From the NCBI RefSeq assembly GCF_013122565.1, contig NZ_CP053258.1: a stretch of DNA of 64,000 nt; one strand, 5' to 3'. Shown piece by piece: positions 3,763-12,716 of this stretch; within the stretch, counting starts at the first letter, position 1, and each line of letters starts with the position of its first letter. The position numbers were made by a program, and so were the translations under genes. Origin of the DNA: Escherichia coli. GTDB lineage: Bacteria; Pseudomonadota; Gammaproteobacteria; Enterobacterales; Enterobacteriaceae. Under the pieces are notes generated by a model. That model saw only the letters and a list, made by a program, of their open reading frames with translations. It was not told the DNA's origin and ran no database searches.

Positions 3763-5259
3763 ATGCAGGGCACAAAAATTCGACTTTTAGCGGGCGGTTT
3801 GCTGATGATGGCCACTGCTGGCTATGTGCAGGCAGATGCGCTCCAGCCTGATCCAGCATGGCAACAGGGGACGCTTTCCAACGGTTTACAGTGGCAAGTG
3901 CTGACCACCCCCCAGCGTCCCAGCGATCGTGTTGAAATTCGCCTGCTGGTTAATACCGGTTCGCTCGCCGAAAGTACACAACAGAGCGGGTACAGTCACG
4001 CCATCCCTCGTATTGCGCTAACGCAAAGCGGTGGCCTTGACGCAGCACAGGCGCGTTCATTGTGGCAGCAGGGGATCGACCCTAAACGCCCTATGCCGCC
4101 GGTAATTGTCTCTTATGACACCACGCTGTTTAATCTGAGTTTGCCCAATAACCGTAACGACTTGCTGAAAGAAGCGCTCTCTTATCTGGCAAATGCCACT
4201 GGCAAACTGACCATCACACCAGAAACCATCAACCACGCGCTGCAAAGTCAGGACATGGTGGCAACCTGGCCTGCCGATACTAAAGAGGGCTGGTGGCGTT
4301 ATCGTCTGAAAGGATCAACCCTGTTAGGTCACGATCCTGCCGATCCGCTGAAACAACCCGTTGAAGCGGAAAAAATTAAAGATTTCTATCAGAAATGGTA
4401 CACCCCGGATGCAATGACGCTGCTGGTGGTGGGAAACGTTGATGCGCGCTCGGTCGTCGACCAAATCAACAAAACGTTTGGCGAACTGAAAGGCAAACGT
4501 GAAACGCCAGCTCCGGTGCCGACGCTTTCTCCGCTGCGTGCGGAAGCGGTGAGTATTATGACTGACGCGGTGCGTCAGGACCGGTTATCTATCATGTGGG
4601 ATACGCCGTGGCAGCCGATTCGTGAATCAGCCGCACTGCTGCGCTACTGGCGTGCGGACCTGGCCCGTGAGGCGCTGTTCTGGCATGTTCAGCAAGCGTT
4701 AAGCGCCAGTAACAGCAAAGACATCGGTCTTGGATTTGACTGCCGTGTGCTGTATCTGCGTGCGCAGTGTGCCATCAACATCGAATCACCAAACGACAAG
4801 CTGAACAGCAACCTTAATCTGGTGGCGCGTGAACTGGCGAAGGTTCGCGATAAAGGTCTGCCGGAAGAAGAGTTCAATGCGTTAGTGGCGCAAAAGAAAC
4901 TGGAGCTGCAGAAACTGTTTGCCGCCTATGCGCGAGCTGATACCGATATTCTGATGGGCCAGCGGATGCGTTCGTTGCAAAATCAGGTTGTCGATATCGC
5001 GCCGGAGCAATATCAGAAACTGCGCCAGGATTTCCTTAATAGCCTGACGGTAGAGATGTTAAATCAGGATCTGCGTCAGCAGTTGTCGAATGATATGGCA
5101 TTAATACTGCTGCAGCCTAAAGGCGAGCCGGAATTTAACATGAAAGCGTTGCAGGCGGCCTGGGATCAAATCATGGCCCCATCTACCGCCGCTGCGACCA
5201 CCTCTGTCGCCACGGATGACGTACATCCTGAAGTTTCGGATATTCCACCCGCACAGTAA
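3763..5259 (+). CDS. yhjJ: YhjJ, periplasmic M16-peptidase-family protein (probably non-catalytic)
   Basis: 498-aa ORF with N-terminal signal peptide (MQGTKIRLLAGGLLMMATAGYVQA); M16-like N-terminal region reads SHAIPR where active enzymes have HxxEH. Confidence 0.85.
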   Translation: MQGTKIRLLAGGLLMMATAGYVQADALQPDPAWQQGTLSNGLQWQVLTTPQRPSDRVEIRLLVNTGSLAESTQQSGYSHAIPRIALTQSGGLDAAQARSLWQQGIDPKRPMPPVIVSYDTTLFNLSLPNNRNDLLKEALSYLANATGKLTITPETINHALQSQDMVATWPADTKEGWWRYRLKGSTLLGHDPADPLKQPVEAEKIKDFYQKWYTPDAMTLLVVGNVDARSVVDQINKTFGELKGKRETPAPVPTLSPLRAEAVSIMTDAVRQDRLSIMWDTPWQPIRESAALLRYWRADLAREALFWHVQQALSASNSKDIGLGFDCRVLYLRAQCAINIESPNDKLNSNLNLVARELAKVRDKGLPEEEFNALVAQKKLELQKLFAAYARADTDILMGQRMRSLQNQVVDIAPEQYQKLRQDFLNSLTVEMLNQDLRQQLSNDMALILLQPKGEPEFNMKALQAAWDQIMAPSTAAATTSVATDDVHPEVSDIPPAQ

Positions 5260-5457: not shown

Positions 5458-5718
5458 ATGGCCTATCATATAGAAATATGGGAAATTGAAGAAACTGATA
5501 AAGTAGTAAAATATGAATTTGGACCTATATCTTCTGACTATTGTAGATCTGATTACGGCGAGTTCGTGATAGATAAAAGAACGGGGGAGATGACATTAGT
5601 CAGACTGGTTAAAAACGATTCGGCTAATAAATTTTATTTGCGAGCGAGTTTTAAGATTCTGACCTGTTGGCGAAAGGGCTATTTGCCAAAAACAAGGAAT
5701 GAGCTTCTTAATAAGTAA
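5458..5718 (+). CDS. Hypothetical small protein (86 aa), AT-rich accessory ORF
   Basis: ATG-initiated ORF, very low GC, first of five co-directional small ORFs; no family recognised. Confidence 0.4.
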   Translation: MAYHIEIWEIEETDKVVKYEFGPISSDYCRSDYGEFVIDKRTGEMTLVRLVKNDSANKFYLRASFKILTCWRKGYLPKTRNELLNK

Positions 5719-5779
5719 CTTTGCATAATAAGTGAATTTTCCCATTTTTGGGGGGCAGTCGTTGATTCTTACACAGTTT

Positions 5780-6028
5780 ATGTTATGGGTGCAGAAAAAC
5801 ACTGGGCATAATATTAAAAGCAATGCCAATACCTTATCAACCAGCATAGTTATTGATTTTGATAATGATATCCATATTGCCAGATTTACAGGTTGGGATG
5901 ATTTAAGTTGTATGTCAGAAGTTATATGCGTTGAATCGGGTGATTATAAATTAAATCAGCGAAATGAATTCCATACTTATGATTCGCTAAGGATAATATT
6001 TGATGCTTTAATAGAAAGCATACAGTAA
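5780..6028 (+). CDS. Hypothetical small protein (about 82 aa from first ATG; 98 aa if non-ATG start at 5732)
   Basis: ORF in the same AT-rich cluster; start codon unclear and no convincing RBS. Confidence 0.3.
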   Translation: MLWVQKNTGHNIKSNANTLSTSIVIDFDNDIHIARFTGWDDLSCMSEVICVESGDYKLNQRNEFHTYDSLRIIFDALIESIQ

Positions 6029-6088
6029 CTTTTTTCTTAGTAAGAAAATAATATACACGAGTATATCTAATTAAATTTAGGATAGGCT

Positions 6089-6568
6089 ATGGATTTTCAC
6101 CTGGATATTTTGCTCCCTACACGTTTCGCTCCAGAGGAACTAGATCTACAAGAGGTTATGGTTCACTGGGGTGGGGAAACCTTTCATCGCGACCCTCCTG
6201 TATACGCCTGGTGTAATCATTATCTCTTGCAGAGATGTAATATACCGATTACTTATGGCCAACCTTTAGATGAGCACATAGACTTTAATGAATACCATAT
6301 TTACAACTTCAATGGTTCTATAGTCGATGAGCTGGAAATGGCTGTGAATAAAGGAAAGGATATTTCAACCGATCCTATAATTAAAATTATTAACAACCTG
6401 ATTAGCAAAAAGTACAGGGGGTGGTTAATCTTGTCATTAGATGATGAAAAAATAGAAGTAATTAAAAATATAAGTTCCCAGTGTTCTTTTCAATCGTTAT
6501 TAGTTGATGGACTAAAATGGGAAAGACCACATGGGGTGGCAATATTATATAATTCACACTTAATTTAA
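6089..6568 (+). CDS. Hypothetical protein (159 aa), AT-rich accessory ORF
   Basis: ATG start preceded by aggatagg RBS-like sequence; no recognised motifs. Confidence 0.45.
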   Translation: MDFHLDILLPTRFAPEELDLQEVMVHWGGETFHRDPPVYAWCNHYLLQRCNIPITYGQPLDEHIDFNEYHIYNFNGSIVDELEMAVNKGKDISTDPIIKIINNLISKKYRGWLILSLDDEKIEVIKNISSQCSFQSLLVDGLKWERPHGVAILYNSHLI

Positions 6569-6585
6569 TTAATGAAAGGAAACAT

Positions 6586-6888
6586 ATGTATCGTGCAAAG
6601 GTTGTTTGGCTTACAGATAAAGAAGGTGGTAGAAGGAGCGCTCCTCCCATCGGTAGATACTATCCCGTCTCCAGATTTCCAGAGGAGCAAACTGACTGGC
6701 AAAATAATGCATGGAGTGTTGTTTTTGAATTGGAAAAACCTAATGTAACCGATGGACGTATCGTTTCAATGGGGGGCGTTCAGTTCCTTTTCGATACTGC
6801 CCCTGCACAATGGATGACTAAGTACGAGGCATTTGAAATCTACGAAGGACCAAGAAAAGTCGCAGATGTATTCTTGATAGAAAATTAA
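6586..6888 (+). CDS. Hypothetical protein (100 aa)
   Basis: ATG start preceded by aaaggaaa RBS; 17 nt after the previous ORF stop, suggesting an operon. Confidence 0.45.
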   Translation: MYRAKVVWLTDKEGGRRSAPPIGRYYPVSRFPEEQTDWQNNAWSVVFELEKPNVTDGRIVSMGGVQFLFDTAPAQWMTKYEAFEIYEGPRKVADVFLIEN

Positions 6889-6948
6889 TTTTATTTATGT
6901 CAGTCAATTTAAGCATATTTGCGACTCAACGCATGTTCAGGAGTGTAA

Positions 6949-7482
6949 ATGCGCTACAAAAAAGTCATGCTATTATTGCTAACAGTCATTCTTTGCTTAA
7001 CCGGTCTTTATTCCTGCAACAAAAATTTTCTCTTACTCTGGGATGCCAATAATATTTATGTCAGTACAAAAAATAATATCGATAAAGACAAGGTGAAAAT
7101 AGAATTCGGCATCAGCGTCAACACGATCAACCGAGAAACGGATGCCGAATTATTTGCTGACAGAGATAAGTATACCGTGCTCTTCGATGGTAGCCTGAAA
7201 AGCAAGATGATAAACGAGTACGGCGAAAATGATTTTTTAATTACCTACGATGACCGCTGCTATTTATCATTTCGTCAATTTAAAACCAATCGTCGTCATC
7301 AACATGACTATTATTTTTACTTCTTTAACAAGGATGGGAATGTCTTCGTCACGGTCGAAATTAAAGGTGAGAACCCGCTTAAATTTACACGTAGTTTAAA
7401 TGATATGCGTCAGCAGTTTTCACCATTCCGTAAGGGTAGCACTTCTCACTCCTGCAAGGTTATTTCTTCAGATCCTTCTTAA
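6949..7482 (+). CDS. Hypothetical putative lipoprotein (177 aa)
   Basis: ATG with aggagtg RBS; N-terminal signal-like sequence ending LTGLYSC (lipobox-like cysteine); 3' end overlaps the convergent lipoprotein gene by about 23 nt. Confidence 0.45.
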   Translation: MRYKKVMLLLLTVILCLTGLYSCNKNFLLLWDANNIYVSTKNNIDKDKVKIEFGISVNTINRETDAELFADRDKYTVLFDGSLKSKMINEYGENDFLITYDDRCYLSFRQFKTNRRHQHDYYFYFFNKDGNVFVTVEIKGENPLKFTRSLNDMRQQFSPFRKGSTSHSCKVISSDPS

Positions 7483-9502
7483 ACACTGGTTCTGGACAAT
7501 CACGACCAAAATGCGCAGCCCAGTCAAAAAATTTACCGTTTTTCACGTAGCGTTGATAAATTAATGCACCGGTTTCTGGATCAAGATATCTGACCCAACT
7601 TGCAGCATGGCATAAGACGGCAGCCCATGCTTGGGTTTTAGGGTGAAGTAAATAGGCAGATTGTTCGGCCCATTCCGCAGCCTGCCAGCGGTAATGCAAA
7701 AAGTGATCATCAGCGGTGGGGATCGCGTGGCGAATACGTTTATTTTCTTTACGACTTATCCATTGATCGTTATTGCTGTATTCAAAGGGGGACGAATATT
7801 GCCCGCTGGTAATGGCATAATCGGGATACATTTCATAAGCCACTAATTCGATACCACTGAAACGCAAAAGCCGCGCAGCTTCGTATTGTGCCTGGGCGCG
7901 TTGCTTATCAGGGATGTTTTTATTTTTCGCTATCGCCATTAAATCAGCCAGTTTTTGTGCGGCCTGGCGATAATTGGGAATATCAAACCAATTGATGGCC
8001 TGCTGATATTGACCATGACGTATTAATCGTCTCCCTAATAGCGCACGTAATTTAACATCCGTTGGAATGATATCTGGCGAAATATAATAACCGTAATTGC
8101 TATTGTTTAAATCTACAGGTTTTAAAGGGTGCTGAGGTGCCGGTACGTTGTTTTCAACAAACGCCTGTAACTCCGGCAAGGTCAAAACGTTTTCTGCAAC
8201 CCAGGCTAAATCGGCCCAATAGAGATCTTTCGCCTGGTAAAACAATGCAGCCGCCTGAAGATAATCATCGCGTTTTAATGCTAAAATCGCCTGCTCACTG
8301 GCAATACGGCAAGATGGGATAGTAACTTTATCTCCATGATAATAAGGGCTTTCCTGGTCCATACTTCCCCACATTTCATCGGTCGGGAACAGCGGGACTG
8401 CGCGAGCATAGTGACGCGTTGCCAGTGGAATATCTCCGGCTCGTAATGCCATTTTTGCTTTTAACCATTCGCTTAATCCACTTTCTGGCGCATCCTCCAA
8501 CAGCGTTTGTGCTAACGAATAATTTCCTGCCCGATACGCCAGTGCTGCCAGTCGATCGCTATAACTAAATCCTTTAACTCTGTGTTGACTTAGCAACTTA
8601 ATTAAACGGTCGCGATGCGTTGGACAGGTATAATCTACAAGGTCTTCAGTACAGGCTTCGCTAACATACCCCCAGTCATGACGAATAAAGAGCTCTGCGA
8701 TTACCAGTTGCTGAACCAGTGGATCATCAATAACCGATTCCAGCAGTGGTAAATTTTTCTCCCTGGTTAGATATAGCGAAATCATTCGTAACGAAGCTTT
8801 CCCGGAGGGCGAACCCTGGGCCGCTTGCCGGGCATAAATTTTTACTGCCGCAGCGACATCACCTTTTTTCAGATAATAATGCCCAATCTGACCGAGACTG
8901 GCGAGAGAGAGCTGCTCAGGATCGGCTGCGCCATTACGGACCTCTTCAATGATTTGCTGATAACGTTGTATGGCCTGCTCAGCAATTTCCTGATTAAAGC
9001 CGCCTTTATTGATTATAAGATCGAGATTGTCGTCAGTGGCATCAAATCCCCCTCTTGCCAGACTATATAGCGCAGCAAGACGCCATTCCCCTTGCTCTGT
9101 TTTCGGTAAGGCTAATAATTGCTGAAAGTAAGGGCTATCGTATTTTCCCTGATGAAAATCCTTAGCTCCTGAATAATAAAGCCACTGCGCATCAGATAAT
9201 GGTTTCTGCAATTTTTGCGCGATTTCCAGTGACCTATTTTGCACAGGAGACTCAGCATCATCATCTGTATTTTCCTGCGTTGCCTCCGCGGGCGTATTTT
9301 CATGCCATATTGGTAAACCAGGATCGCGTTTAGCCAACTGTTGTACTTCAAAGACAAAACTGCCATTTGGCATTTCCAGCAGTGCGCTATTGCGGTCAGT
9401 TAACAGATGGTTAGGAATAAATGGTCCACAGGCATTAACATTGGCGCTAATTAGTGAGAGAAATACAATAACGGAAATCCGCGATCTATTAGGGGATAAC
9501 AT
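7460..9502 (-). CDS. Putative outer-membrane/periplasmic lipoprotein with TPR/Sel1-like helical repeats (about 681 aa)
   Basis: Long ORF; most plausible start is the ATG preceded by aaggagag RBS giving MLSPNRSRISVIVFLSLISANVNAC (signal peptide plus lipobox-like Cys); several degenerate A/Y/L-rich helical repeats. Function unknown. Confidence 0.6.
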   Translation of the reverse strand: MLSPNRSRISVIVFLSLISANVNACGPFIPNHLLTDRNSALLEMPNGSFVFEVQQLAKRDPGLPIWHENTPAEATQENTDDDAESPVQNRSLEIAQKLQKPLSDAQWLYYSGAKDFHQGKYDSPYFQQLLALPKTEQGEWRLAALYSLARGGFDATDDNLDLIINKGGFNQEIAEQAIQRYQQIIEEVRNGAADPEQLSLASLGQIGHYYLKKGDVAAAVKIYARQAAQGSPSGKASLRMISLYLTREKNLPLLESVIDDPLVQQLVIAELFIRHDWGYVSEACTEDLVDYTCPTHRDRLIKLLSQHRVKGFSYSDRLAALAYRAGNYSLAQTLLEDAPESGLSEWLKAKMALRAGDIPLATRHYARAVPLFPTDEMWGSMDQESPYYHGDKVTIPSCRIASEQAILALKRDDYLQAAALFYQAKDLYWADLAWVAENVLTLPELQAFVENNVPAPQHPLKPVDLNNSNYGYYISPDIIPTDVKLRALLGRRLIRHGQYQQAINWFDIPNYRQAAQKLADLMAIAKNKNIPDKQRAQAQYEAARLLRFSGIELVAYEMYPDYAITSGQYSSPFEYSNNDQWISRKENKRIRHAIPTADDHFLHYRWQAAEWAEQSAYLLHPKTQAWAAVLCHAASWVRYLDPETGALIYQRYVKNGKFFDWAAHFGRDCPEPVFKKDLKK

Positions 9503-10694
9503 TGAACTCTCCTTGTATTTTTTTATTGCAGCGCGCCCATCCCAGCGGACTGCTTTCTCCGGCACGCAGCTGCCTGTCGCTTATCCTTACAAAATGCAGG
9601 CTGGATGAGCCAGGTTGCACCTGATAGTGGCTTACTCCATCAGCGAATAGACAATCTGCATTGGGCAGAATTATTTGTTTTGGCAACGGCGCATCAATTA
9701 CGCCGCTGTTTTTAAAGGCCAGATCAAAAAGTTGCTTGTCTGTATGTTGAGTAATTATTAACGACCAGCGCGGAGTCAGCGGTTGATGTCGAATCACGGC
9801 TTCCAGTGTTGTCAGTGACCAGGCGCGGCGATCGCCTGCTAACGGTAGCCGAAACCATACCAACCCCTGTAATCCACGCGGTGGTTGCTGTTCTATATAT
9901 TGAATAAACTCGGCAATCGTTTGTGGAGATACACTTAGTTCTTGCATTTCATCAGCAACGTATAGCGGGGATTCGCTTTCGACACGATTATCACTGGTGA
10001 GTGCGGAGCCATAAGCGGGCAATGCGATGAAAAAAGGGTGCGTGGTTTGCCTGGCATATTGCTTTACCCAACGCTGCGCCAGACTGACATCTAACAGGCC
10101 TTTTTCGGGCGACAGCACGTTATGTACCTGGAAAACCGAAGTGTCCGCAATCCGCAATAATCGAGCGAGATGTGGTGATTCAAGCCAGGTGGGCAGGGCG
10201 GTAACGCTGAGTTTTAGATTTGTGGGAAGTGCCTGATGTAACGCACTAAGTAGGGTCTGATATTCCGGCAATTTTGCTGTTGGCGCGTCATAATCAATTT
10301 CCACCCCTGCCAGTGTAATACCTGCGTTTTGCCACTCACGTTGGGTTTGTTGAATATGCTGTATTATTTGCTGGTTATTAAGCCCTGTTAGCTGACCATC
10401 GAGTCGCGCGACCAGCCAGACCGGGCGACCATCCTGCTTAATAAGCGAAGTATTCACCGCAAAATGTCGGATGCCTTCCTGTAGATGAAATTGCATCCCG
10501 AGTATGCGCAGTGTAGAAAAAAGTGAACGGCTTTGTTTTAGAGCGCTGGTATGTTCTGCTGTCCATACACGTTGCCAGATATAGGCTTGCTGATCAAAGC
10601 GAAGCGGCTGTGAGGGGGTAAATAAATTATGCAGCCCATAACCCAGGCAGATCAGAAGAAGTGAAGCTGCAATAATCCTTTTGCAAGATGGCAT
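9489..10694 (-). CDS. Putative secreted or membrane-anchored protein (401 aa), DUF3142-like by recollection
   Basis: ORF with N-terminal hydrophobic segment (RIIAASLLLICLGYGL); stop overlaps the start of the downstream lipoprotein gene by about 14 nt, suggesting translational coupling. Confidence 0.6.
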   Translation of the reverse strand: MPSCKRIIAASLLLICLGYGLHNLFTPSQPLRFDQQAYIWQRVWTAEHTSALKQSRSLFSTLRILGMQFHLQEGIRHFAVNTSLIKQDGRPVWLVARLDGQLTGLNNQQIIQHIQQTQREWQNAGITLAGVEIDYDAPTAKLPEYQTLLSALHQALPTNLKLSVTALPTWLESPHLARLLRIADTSVFQVHNVLSPEKGLLDVSLAQRWVKQYARQTTHPFFIALPAYGSALTSDNRVESESPLYVADEMQELSVSPQTIAEFIQYIEQQPPRGLQGLVWFRLPLAGDRRAWSLTTLEAVIRHQPLTPRWSLIITQHTDKQLFDLAFKNSGVIDAPLPKQIILPNADCLFADGVSHYQVQPGSSSLHFVRISDRQLRAGESSPLGWARCNKKIQGEFNVIP

Positions 10695-10788
10695 ATTGTC
10701 ACGGCATAACGATCATCAACAGGGCGGTAGTGTACTGCCGAAACTATTAACGGAGAACGAATATCTACCCGTTCTCCGTCAAAAACCA

Positions 10789-11718
10789 TTATGCAGGCAT
10801 TGCTTCACGCGGGATAATCGCGCCGCGATACTGAATAACGGTACTTGCGGTCAGGTGCCCGCGTTTCGCCGCGTCTTCCGCACTGCCGCCCGTCAAACGT
10901 ACCGCCAGATAACCGGCACTGAAAGAGTCGCCAGCTGCGGTGGTATCGATCACTTTTTCTTTCGGCAGTTTCACCGCTGGAACATCCACTAACCCTTCGC
11001 CAGCAATAGACACCAGGCAAGAATCCGCCCCGCGTTTCACCACCACTTCTTTCACGCCCGCGTTATGGGTGCGCGCAATGACGTCTTCCACCGGCTGTTG
11101 ACCCCACAGCGCGTCTTCATCGTCCAGCGTCAGGAAGGCGATATCCGTGCATTCCAGCATTTGTTGGTACACCTGCTGTGTCTCTTCTTTGCTGGCCCAC
11201 AGGCGCGGACGATAGTTATTGTCGAAAATCACTTTTCCGCCGTTGGCGCGGCATTCGCGCAGCAGGGAAAGCAGCTTTTCGCGGCTGGTCGGGCTTAAGA
11301 TCGCCAGGCTAATCCCGCTCAGGTAGAGATAATCGAAATTCGCCAGCTCTGCACAAATCGCCGCAGACTGCTCGCTCTCCAGCCAGAATTTGGCAGCGGC
11401 TTCGTTACGCCAGTAGTAGAACGTACGTTCGCCGGTGCTGTCGGTTTCAATGTAGTAAAGGCCCGGCAGACGGTTTTCCATCCGTTGGGTCAGGGAAGTA
11501 TCAACGTTCTCGCCGTGCCAGGCGTCCAGCATCTGCTGGCTAAAACTGTCCGTTCCCAGCGCCGTTACGTAATGAACGGTTAATGCCGCAGGATCGACCT
11601 GACGGGCGATATAGACGGAAGTGTTCAGGGTATCGCCGCCGAAACCGCGCTTAACGTCCGCGCCTTTCTCGGAAAGCTCAATCATGCATTCGCCAATCAC
11701 GGCAATCTTTTTGGACAT
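10789..11718 (-). CDS. kdgK: 2-dehydro-3-deoxygluconokinase KdgK
   Basis: 309 aa from MSKKIAVIGECMIEL; PfkB-family sugar kinase; the ORF track extends 28 codons further upstream. Confidence 0.9.
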   Translation of the reverse strand: MSKKIAVIGECMIELSEKGADVKRGFGGDTLNTSVYIARQVDPAALTVHYVTALGTDSFSQQMLDAWHGENVDTSLTQRMENRLPGLYYIETDSTGERTFYYWRNEAAAKFWLESEQSAAICAELANFDYLYLSGISLAILSPTSREKLLSLLRECRANGGKVIFDNNYRPRLWASKEETQQVYQQMLECTDIAFLTLDDEDALWGQQPVEDVIARTHNAGVKEVVVKRGADSCLVSIAGEGLVDVPAVKLPKEKVIDTTAAGDSFSAGYLAVRLTGGSAEDAAKRGHLTASTVIQYRGAIIPREAMPA

Positions 11719-11948
11719 AGTCGTGAACCTGATCTGTAAAAAATTAGCGTTAGTTTGCGCTGTGGTGGTTTGCTGGTCAACCATATTAAAACAGTGTTCC
11801 ATTATTTTTTTGAGCCAGAACGTATTCCTGAAAGATTCCGTTGTAGAGGGGGAAATTTACCCCGGCCAGGCGGTAAAGTTCTGCCCTTGCGCGCCGATAA
11901 TCTTTGTCGAGTCCGGGCAGCATCACTTTTAAACACAGGACATCTTTG

Positions 11949-12716
11949 ATGATAAGGCAGGTTATCCAGCGAATAAGCAACCCTGAAGCAAGCATCGAGA
12001 GCTTGCAGGAACGGCGTTTTTGGTTGCAGTGTGAGCGTGCTTACACCTGGCAGCCGATCTATCAAACATGCGGACGGTTAATGGCCGTGGAGCTATTAAC
12101 GGTGGTCACGCATCCCTTGACCCCTTCGCAACGCCTGTCGCCGGATCGCTATTTTACTGAAATCACCGTCAGCCATCGGATGGAGGTTGTGAAAGAGCAG
12201 ATTGATTTGCTGGCGCAAAAAGCCGACTTCTTTATAGAACACGGCCTGCTGGCATCGGTCAATATTGATGGCCCTACGCTCATCGCTCTGCGTCAGCAAC
12301 CAAAAATCCTGCGCCAGATTGAGCGTCTTCCCTGGCTGCGTTTCGAACTGGTGGAACACATCCGTCTGCCGAAAGATTCAACCTTTGCCTCGATGTGTGA
12401 ATTTGGCCCGCTGTGGCTGGATGATTTTGGTACCGGGATGGCAAATTTCTCTGCGCTAAGTGAAGTGCGTTATGACTACATCAAAATCGCGCGAGAACTG
12501 TTTGTGATGCTGCGTCAGTCGCCGGAAGGCCGCACACTCTTTTCTCAGCTTTTACATCTAATGAATCGCTATTGTCGCGGGGTGATTGTCGAGGGCGTAG
12601 AAACACCGGAAGAGTGGCGTGATGTTCAGAACTCGCCCGCATTCGCCGCACAAGGCTGGTTTCTTTCACGCCCGGCACCGATAGAAACGCTGAATACGGC
12701 GGTTCTGGCGCTATAA
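11949..12716 (+). CDS. pdeH: c-di-GMP phosphodiesterase PdeH (YhjH), EAL-only protein
   Basis: 255 aa from MIRQVIQRISNPEA; EAL domain with ELL variant motif. Confidence 0.9.
   Translation: MIRQVIQRISNPEASIESLQERRFWLQCERAYTWQPIYQTCGRLMAVELLTVVTHPLTPSQRLSPDRYFTEITVSHRMEVVKEQIDLLAQKADFFIEHGLLASVNIDGPTLIALRQQPKILRQIERLPWLRFELVEHIRLPKDSTFASMCEFGPLWLDDFGTGMANFSALSEVRYDYIKIARELFVMLRQSPEGRTLFSQLLHLMNRYCRGVIVEGVETPEEWRDVQNSPAFAAQGWFLSRPAPIETLNTAVLAL

Follow-up and report, generated by a model that had tools for sequence, protein, structure and literature searches.

Chitinases, hevamine, EndoH and the N-acetylglucosaminidase SleL are glycoside hydrolase family 18 (GH18) enzymes, which have a (beta/alpha) barrel with an acidic D-x-D-x-E motif where strand 4 ends and with aromatic or polar invariant residues on the same face of the barrel. 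TfeC of Yersinia, an effector that a type VI secretion system (T6SS), namely T6SS4, delivers, acts as an antifungal agent against fungal cell wall structures (PMC13162877) and has also been called a secreted antifungal chitinase (PMC13008689); both reviews cite Zhu et al. (Nat Microbiol, doi 10.1038/s41564-025-02208-z). TfeC is the single characterised relative of a protein encoded in the DNA analysed here, a window of 64,000 nucleotides (nt) from Escherichia coli (assembly GCF_013122565.1, contig NZ_CP053258.1), the positions of which are used as coordinates throughout. As described in an initial annotation of this DNA, two open reading frames (ORFs) lie on the minus strand between yhjJ (3763-5259, +) and kdgK (10789-11718, -). 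The upstream one (9489-10694, -) was identified from the ORF list and its Pfam match as a DUF3142 gene and encodes 401 amino acids (aa), the length originally given, and the downstream one (7460-9502, -) encodes a tetratricopeptide repeat (TPR)-like, all-alpha protein of 680 aa, which is referred to below as the partner. We found that the two genes constitute a real, conserved and uncharacterised module.

The 401-aa protein matched the Pfam family DUF3142 (PF11340) with an E-value of 7.7e-75 over model positions 1-201 of 202, and all of its 114 aligned relatives likewise match DUF3142, by which the family tentatively named in the initial annotation was established. Its AlphaFold model (predicted local distance difference test, pLDDT, 94.8; predicted template modelling score, pTM, 0.89) comprises an N-terminal membrane helix at residues 2-25, corresponding to the N-terminal signal or anchor that had been noticed before, a GH18-like (beta/alpha) barrel at residues 34-301 and a C-terminal beta-sandwich at residues 310-400 with the nearly invariant cysteines C348 and C389. 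Two features of the sequence, namely the positively charged K5 and R6 ahead of the hydrophobic helix and the near-invariance of the two cysteines, fit an N-in, periplasm-facing protein. A canonical lipobox takes the place of the membrane anchor in about 42% of the representatives (48/114, by pattern match). Eighteen columns are invariant across the 114 sequences, namely Y38, W40, W44, R97, E132, D134, D136, T165 and P168 in the first half and W170, Q189, H191, Y228, E241, W280, F281, P284 and D288 in the second. All except one of these (17/18) belong to the barrel, where they sit at or just past the C-terminal strand ends, the side on which (beta/alpha) barrels usually carry their active site. 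Among them are the residues of an E132-x-D134-x-D136 motif, which stands where strand 4 ends.

When the PDB was searched with this model using Foldseek, the 13 best matches were GH18 enzymes and TfeC (E 6e-12 to 2e-8). Chitinases of Clostridium, Chromobacterium and Bacillus and the spore cortex-lytic enzyme SleL stood at the top, hevamine and EndoH stood lower, and the remaining list was mostly GH18, with GH18 matches ranging from E 6e-12 to 1e-5 at a probability of 1.0. The check for a glycoside hydrolase or TIM-barrel fold that had been proposed for this protein thus returned a GH18-like barrel. Sequence profiles gave a fainter signal, as none of the 114 members matched Pfam Glyco_hydro_18 (PF00704) at E<=0.001 and five gave sub-threshold matches at E<=0.1, the best at 4.2e-3, and in a weak profile alignment E132, D134 and D136 fell on H, D and E in the GH18 motif of SleL. 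Judged from the model, both the fold and the place of the acidic motif resemble GH18, whereas the strict GH18 signature is lacking, the motif being E-x-D-x-D in the DUF3142 family and D-x-D-x-E in GH18. What sets the protein of the window apart from the GH18 enzymes is its tether to the membrane and its obligate TPR partner.

Two structures of TfeC (8y6t and 9vtv, 'Chitinase TfeC from Yersinia pseudotuberculosis') were among the Foldseek matches, with an E-value of 2e-9, a TM-score of 0.74 relative to TfeC and 18-19% identity to the protein of the window. The DUF3142 family profile matched the 8y6t sequence at E 1.3e-13, and the chain of 8y6t was named 'DUF3142 domain-containing protein' by its depositors. 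The two proteins thus belong to the same Pfam family, and in both of them strand 4 has an I-D-[FY]-D core at its end. Like the window family, TfeC has Asp at the position of the GH18 catalytic Glu (IDFD), but it has Q where the window family has the invariant E132. TfeC is also short (262 aa in the deposited chain), and the beta-sandwich of the window protein lies outside the part aligned to it. The two differ in their export, as TfeC is exported by T6SS and the protein of the window carries an anchor of the Sec type and is turned towards the periplasm; delivery of the TfeC type is not indicated, given the membrane helix or lipobox on DUF3142 and the finding that, in a comparison of 22 loci from different genera, T6SS genes are not conserved near the pair. 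A search with the 84-residue TfeC fragment brought up partial proteins only. For TfeC-like short DUF3142 genes, two loci were read in place of the locus of TfeC itself, and in these two a partner gene was not found downstream. One TfeC-like short gene, in Cronobacter sakazakii (locus L091, 1-402), adjoins cueR-copA and is cut by the contig end, and a T6SS gene was not found within the 8 kb read around it.

The partner begins at an ATG (9502-9500) lying 5 nt downstream of the Shine-Dalgarno sequence AAGGAG (9513-9508), and the DUF3142 gene ends with a TAA at 9491-9489, so the coupling junction occupies 9489-9513 on the minus strand and the two genes overlap by exactly 14 nt (9489-9502). In the program-made list this ORF begins at a GTG at 9565; we took the ATG as the real start, which is at 9502 and not at 9505, and the product first put at about 681 aa is therefore the same gene with a corrected length of 680 aa. 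In other E. coli strains RefSeq annotates the identical gene pair, also with a 14-nt overlap, under the names 'DUF3142 domain-containing protein' and 'tetratricopeptide repeat protein' or 'hypothetical protein'. One genome per species was scanned in 100,044 species genomes, at least 453 of which contained a relative, and 80 loci were kept. The partner follows DUF3142 on the same strand in 80/80 of these loci. In a set of 86 loci, made up of the 80 together with the window and five other loci with both genes, a start codon precedes the DUF3142 stop by exactly 14 nt in 84, usually after AAGGAG, and the loci with this overlap span Enterobacterales, Pseudomonas and Iodobacter. The other two are L019, where two partner paralogues stand in tandem (8150-12233), and L085, where a TTG lies 11 nt before the stop. 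The conservation of the 14-nt overlap is far beyond chance. Distant members, which are 28-33% identical to the window proteins, are paired too, with overlaps of 14, 14, 20 and 23 nt, the identity being about 28-32% for the two that overlap by 14 nt, and in one distant locus the order is reversed, the partner preceding DUF3142, and a second DUF3142 copy is present. Clustering of ORFs from the 22 loci of different genera showed that only the DUF3142 and partner families are conserved, the other multi-locus clusters being antisense shadows of the pair or single-lineage synteny, and a third conserved gene was not found beside the pair in these loci. The pair is thus a self-contained, translationally coupled two-gene cassette, and both the two-gene operon and the overlap of about 14 nt with apparent coupling, as proposed in the initial annotation, proved to be features with conserved geometry.

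Several individual loci depart from the common arrangement or carry additional neighbours. Locus L087 (2388-7230) contains DUF3142, partner and DUF3142 downstream of a HisKA_3/GerE two-component system, and in L005 (5767-10172) the partner stands alone downstream of a HisKA_3/GerE-type two-component system, with DUF3142 not adjacent. In L003 a gene for a GNAT (PanZ-like) acetyltransferase of about 130 aa (6414-6806) overlaps the DUF3142 start by 4 nt; a GNAT gene is directly upstream of DUF3142 also in L015, L016 and L019, and only in the Chania/Serratia-group lineage. Two single ORFs, P0330 (1176 aa) and P0346 (981 aa), span DUF3142 and the partner. They were considered as evidence of gene fusion and taken as weak support. 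In P0330 an internal signal peptide is retained together with the ACGPDFP motif, so that a frameshift where the genes overlap by 14 nt, or an artefact of gene calling there, is equally likely.

For the partner, a significant match was not found in NCBIfam or Pfam. The best Pfam TPR match of the window protein had an i-E of 0.074, which is sub-threshold, TPR_12 was detected at E<=0.001 in 3/53 homologues, and the partner profile, run against the PDB sequences, retrieved designed or consensus TPR proteins only. The model of the partner (pTM 0.81) is all-alpha, with 34 helices and 0 strands by DSSP, and its helical-hairpin superhelix matches TPR proteins that include the periplasmic YbgF/CpoB and BamD. 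On this modelled fold the partner is only generically TPR-like, with a weak signal in the sequence; of the degenerate TPR/Sel1-like repeats first proposed, the TPR-like fold was retained and a sequence match was not. We identified 105 relatives, with identities as low as about 25%. They come from the genera that also have DUF3142 (Escherichia, Pseudocitrobacter, Serratia, Klebsiella, Budvicia and Pseudomonas), and some from Rhodanobacteraceae. Right after the signal peptide, A24-C25-G26 is invariant in 53 aligned sequences (consensus ACGPDFPxRLL), and the Cys is preceded as LAC, AAC or IAC in many homologues and by Q, Y, H or R at -2 in others. As an invariant Cys follows the signal peptide, the partner is exported and probably a lipoprotein modified on Cys25. 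Gly at +2 directs a lipoprotein to the outer membrane according to the +2 sorting rule, and if lipidated the partner, which has Gly at this position, is predicted to reside there.

Outer-membrane TPR lipoproteins such as LpoA and NlpI, together with the periplasmic CpoB/YbgF, control cell-wall enzymes, an arrangement comparable to that of the present pair. Sequence homology to these proteins is absent, however, and the partner is much larger; the DUF3142 enzyme is also not a penicillin-binding protein or an endopeptidase, and a link to peptidoglycan is one of several possibilities. With moderate confidence we consider the pair to be an envelope cassette, in which a GH18-like periplasmic glycosidase and a TPR-like scaffold or regulator would act together on a glycan containing N-acetylglucosamine (GlcNAc). 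The DUF3142 protein would be anchored in the inner membrane by its N-terminal helix, or by a lipid anchor in many other species, with its barrel and C-terminal beta-sandwich exposed to the periplasm. Because the E-x-D-x-D motif occupies the place of the catalytic D-x-D-x-E motif of GH18, the protein may be expected to be a retaining, substrate-assisted glycosidase cutting next to an N-acetylhexosamine. Candidate substrates are a chito-oligosaccharide or chitin, the glycan strands of peptidoglycan and a polymer resembling poly-N-acetylglucosamine, among which the sequence does not choose. The partner, exported and probably lipidated on Cys25, would be placed in the outer membrane by its Gly at +2. 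As the 14-nt overlap would lead to roughly equimolar co-synthesis of the two proteins, we infer that they form a complex in which the partner may act as a scaffold, localiser or regulator of the enzyme.

Several observations weigh against this assignment of an envelope cassette. The strict GH18 signature DxxDxDxE with a Glu acid/base is absent from the DUF3142 family, which has Asp at the Glu position and lacks the first Asp, and dead GH18-like lectins or inhibitors such as XAIP, which was among the Foldseek matches, share the DUF3142 fold. The kinship with TfeC is distant, the low identity noted above being accompanied by sequence similarity over about 85 residues only. The partner of the window has V-N-A-C where its signal peptide ends, which lies outside the lipobox pattern [LVI][ASTVI][GAS]C and makes cleavage by signal peptidase I possible; the lipoprotein signal 'ISANVNAC' reported at the outset is hence present, with its Cys invariant in the 53 homologues, but is not a textbook lipobox. 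Conserved residues, many of them invariant and polar, extend along the whole length of the partner in the same alignment, from which the partner could have an activity of its own and not be a passive scaffold. Confident homology to a well-characterised enzyme unrelated to envelope polysaccharide, regarded in the initial annotation as the outcome that would contradict its proposal, did not clearly emerge, the closest relatives acting on the GlcNAc polymers chitin and spore cortex peptidoglycan.

A bolder form of the envelope cassette, which we consider unlikely on present evidence, is an undescribed trans-envelope glycan-processing machine in which the GH18-like enzyme, tethered to the inner membrane or by a lipid, would need an obligatory complex with the outer-membrane TPR lipoprotein in order to work, the invariant C-G-P-D-F-P segment near the N-terminus and the many invariant polar residues of the partner would aid its activity or gating, and the substrate would be the peptidoglycan of the cell itself or another GlcNAc polymer. 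If true, such a machine would define, for Proteobacteria, a new class of regulated glycosidases in the periplasm.

Two further readings are possible, each at a lower probability than the envelope cassette. In the first, for which we see a rather small chance, DUF3142 would be a non-catalytic, GH18-like glycan-binding lectin or sensor and the partner a TPR adaptor, together serving envelope sensing or adhesion. The change of the GH18 catalytic Glu to Asp with loss of the first motif Asp, the GH18-fold lectins and inhibitors among the matches (XAIP, 3o9n; the chimerolectin 2gsj) and the two-component system directly upstream in two distant loci are in keeping with such a role, but TfeC has the same D-x-D motif (IDFD) and is called a chitinase in its PDB title and in PMC13008689, and the invariance of E132, D134 and D136 in 114 diverse sequences typifies catalysis more than binding. 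In the second, which we judge more improbable again, the genes would form a hydrolase-inhibitor or toxin-immunity-like pair, with a DUF3142 protein potentially harmful to the cell's own wall, held by the partner as its dedicated inhibitor or chaperone and perhaps released against fungi or bacteria. The DUF3142 protein has a Sec-type anchor or lipobox of its own and no T6SS, Rhs or PAAR context, the partner at 680 aa is far larger than typical immunity proteins, the TfeC-like short DUF3142 genes lack a partner in the two loci read, and PADLOC and PHROGs returned no matches, all of which argue against a weapon of this kind in spite of the fact that TfeC, the sole characterised member of the family, is a secreted antifungal weapon, that strict 1:1 coupling with a downstream gene is typical of effector-immunity pairs and that peptidoglycan-active GH18 enzymes resembling SleL are among the best structural matches.

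The systems PelA/PelB, PgaB/PgaA, BcsZ/BcsC and the one containing AlgK also place an envelope TPR-like protein beside a periplasmic enzyme with a glycoside hydrolase fold, and the pair resembles them to this extent, so that it could be an exopolysaccharide modification or export module of the Pel, Pga, Bcs or alginate type in which the TPR lipoprotein guides a polymer and DUF3142 trims or processes it. Two partner homologues from the Joint Genome Institute were automatically named 'cellulose synthase operon protein C', one Pseudomonas locus has glycosyltransferase, acyltransferase and methyltransferase genes upstream, and all-alpha lipoproteins without a barrel do exist in such systems, AlgK being one. 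Unlike the Pel, Pga, Bcs and Alg systems, however, the pair comes without a beta-barrel, as a C-terminal outer-membrane barrel was not found in the partner model by DSSP, and a synthase, glycosyltransferase, transporter, porin or cyclic di-GMP receptor was not conserved beside it in the 22 loci. The fold of its enzyme is GH18-like and thus different, with PelA, PgaB and BcsZ not among the 50 best PDB matches, and the partner scored 16.1 bits against PrsT (TIGR02917, the PEP-CTERM TPR lipoprotein), for which the cut-off is 312.2. The location near bcs is peculiar to Escherichia, and the flanks of the pair in the window are yhjJ, an island of small ORFs and kdgK, with no polymer synthase among them. 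The analogy with PelA/PelB or PgaB/PgaA from which the initial annotation had started was accordingly given up, and we regard an export module as the least probable of these functions. A defence-system or prophage reading was dropped, as NCBIfam, PADLOC and PHROGs gave nothing significant for the pair and the five small ORFs beside it.

The pair was not described in the literature searched, where DUF3142 was met in passing only and PF11340 was not found. DUF3142 is nevertheless a sizeable family, for which 1,514 representative clusters at 50% identity were obtained from 1.84 billion representative proteins searched, with 114 of them making up the alignment used above, in addition to its presence in the species genomes scanned above, and it has a single, recently described characterised member. 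In its larger, two-domain branch the enzyme would face the periplasm and be locked to a TPR-like partner specific to it. The module is carried by Serratia, fluorescent Pseudomonas, Klebsiella, a minority of E. coli and many Proteobacteria, and the complex, the lipidation of the partner and a GlcNAc-polymer substrate are testable hypotheses for this conserved envelope module. Nothing known is overturned by these results; the fold of the enzyme is familiar, and its function is what we infer.

The initial annotation suggested that the pair is missing from K-12. Of 5,426 complete E. coli genomes it was present in 30, always on the chromosome and always at the yhjJ-kdgK site, and K-12 was not among the full set of 30. 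The core DNA flanking the pair is about 98% identical to E. coli. The yhjJ-kdgK spacer is empty in most E. coli genomes, holds only a low-GC small-ORF island in about 200 genomes (e.g. strain 042), holds a 177-aa ORF and the pair in 28 genomes and holds everything in 2 genomes, plus the window. In the cryptic-clade Escherichia sp. E1V33, yhjJ, the 177-aa ORF, the pair and kdgK are syntenic at about 92-93.5% identity. As this syntenic copy exists outside the species, the island appears to be older than E. coli and to have been mostly lost since by differential decay, to which the patchwork of partial islands also conforms, and the suggestion of an older module lost from K-12 fits this history. 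The spacer, as a decaying ancestral island, may be used as a marker of lineage history. The GC content is 45.1% in the partner and 48.6% in DUF3142, compared with 36% in the small-ORF island and 54-56% in the flanking core genes, and the GC at third codon positions is 0.39-0.44 in the pair and 0.57-0.64 in the flanking core genes. The pair had been described as closer in GC to the core genome than to the island; it does lie above the island but is intermediate, remaining below the core.

Upstream of the DUF3142 start and just after the kdgK stop, a hairpin with a 9-bp stem and a 10-nt loop is present at 10751-10778 on the minus strand. Four Escherichia sequences keep it, and strain 2013C-4282 shows compensatory changes; a clear T-run was not found at the hairpin and a terminator role is uncertain. 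From its sequence it may be the kdgK terminator or an attenuator, and given this hairpin after kdgK, transcription of the pair may start at a weak promoter of its own or continue into it from kdgK. A scan of 7200-11000 gave promoter-like sites at chance level (6 vs 6.4 +/- 2.6), and the terminator-like sites in it fall inside coding sequence.

The small-ORF island of the window (5458-7482, +) contains five ORFs of 86, 98, 159, 100 and 177 aa with 36-37% GC, for which a significant match was not found in NCBIfam, PADLOC and PHROGs, nor in Pfam for the 159- and 177-aa ORFs. This island is mostly found without the DUF3142 pair in the roughly 200 of the 5,426 E. coli genomes that carry it. The 177-aa ORF (6949-7482, +) has a lipoprotein-like N-terminus (..LTGLYSC) and converges on the partner gene with a 23-nt 3' overlap; it accompanies the pair in E. 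coli and Escherichia sp. E1V33 and in no other genus. Strain 042, which lacks the pair, has a longer form of this ORF that extends into the 3' end of kdgK. In a single genome, that of E. coli strain E22 (NZ_CM143899.1), the IS5-like element ISKpn26 is inserted within the DUF3142-partner region.

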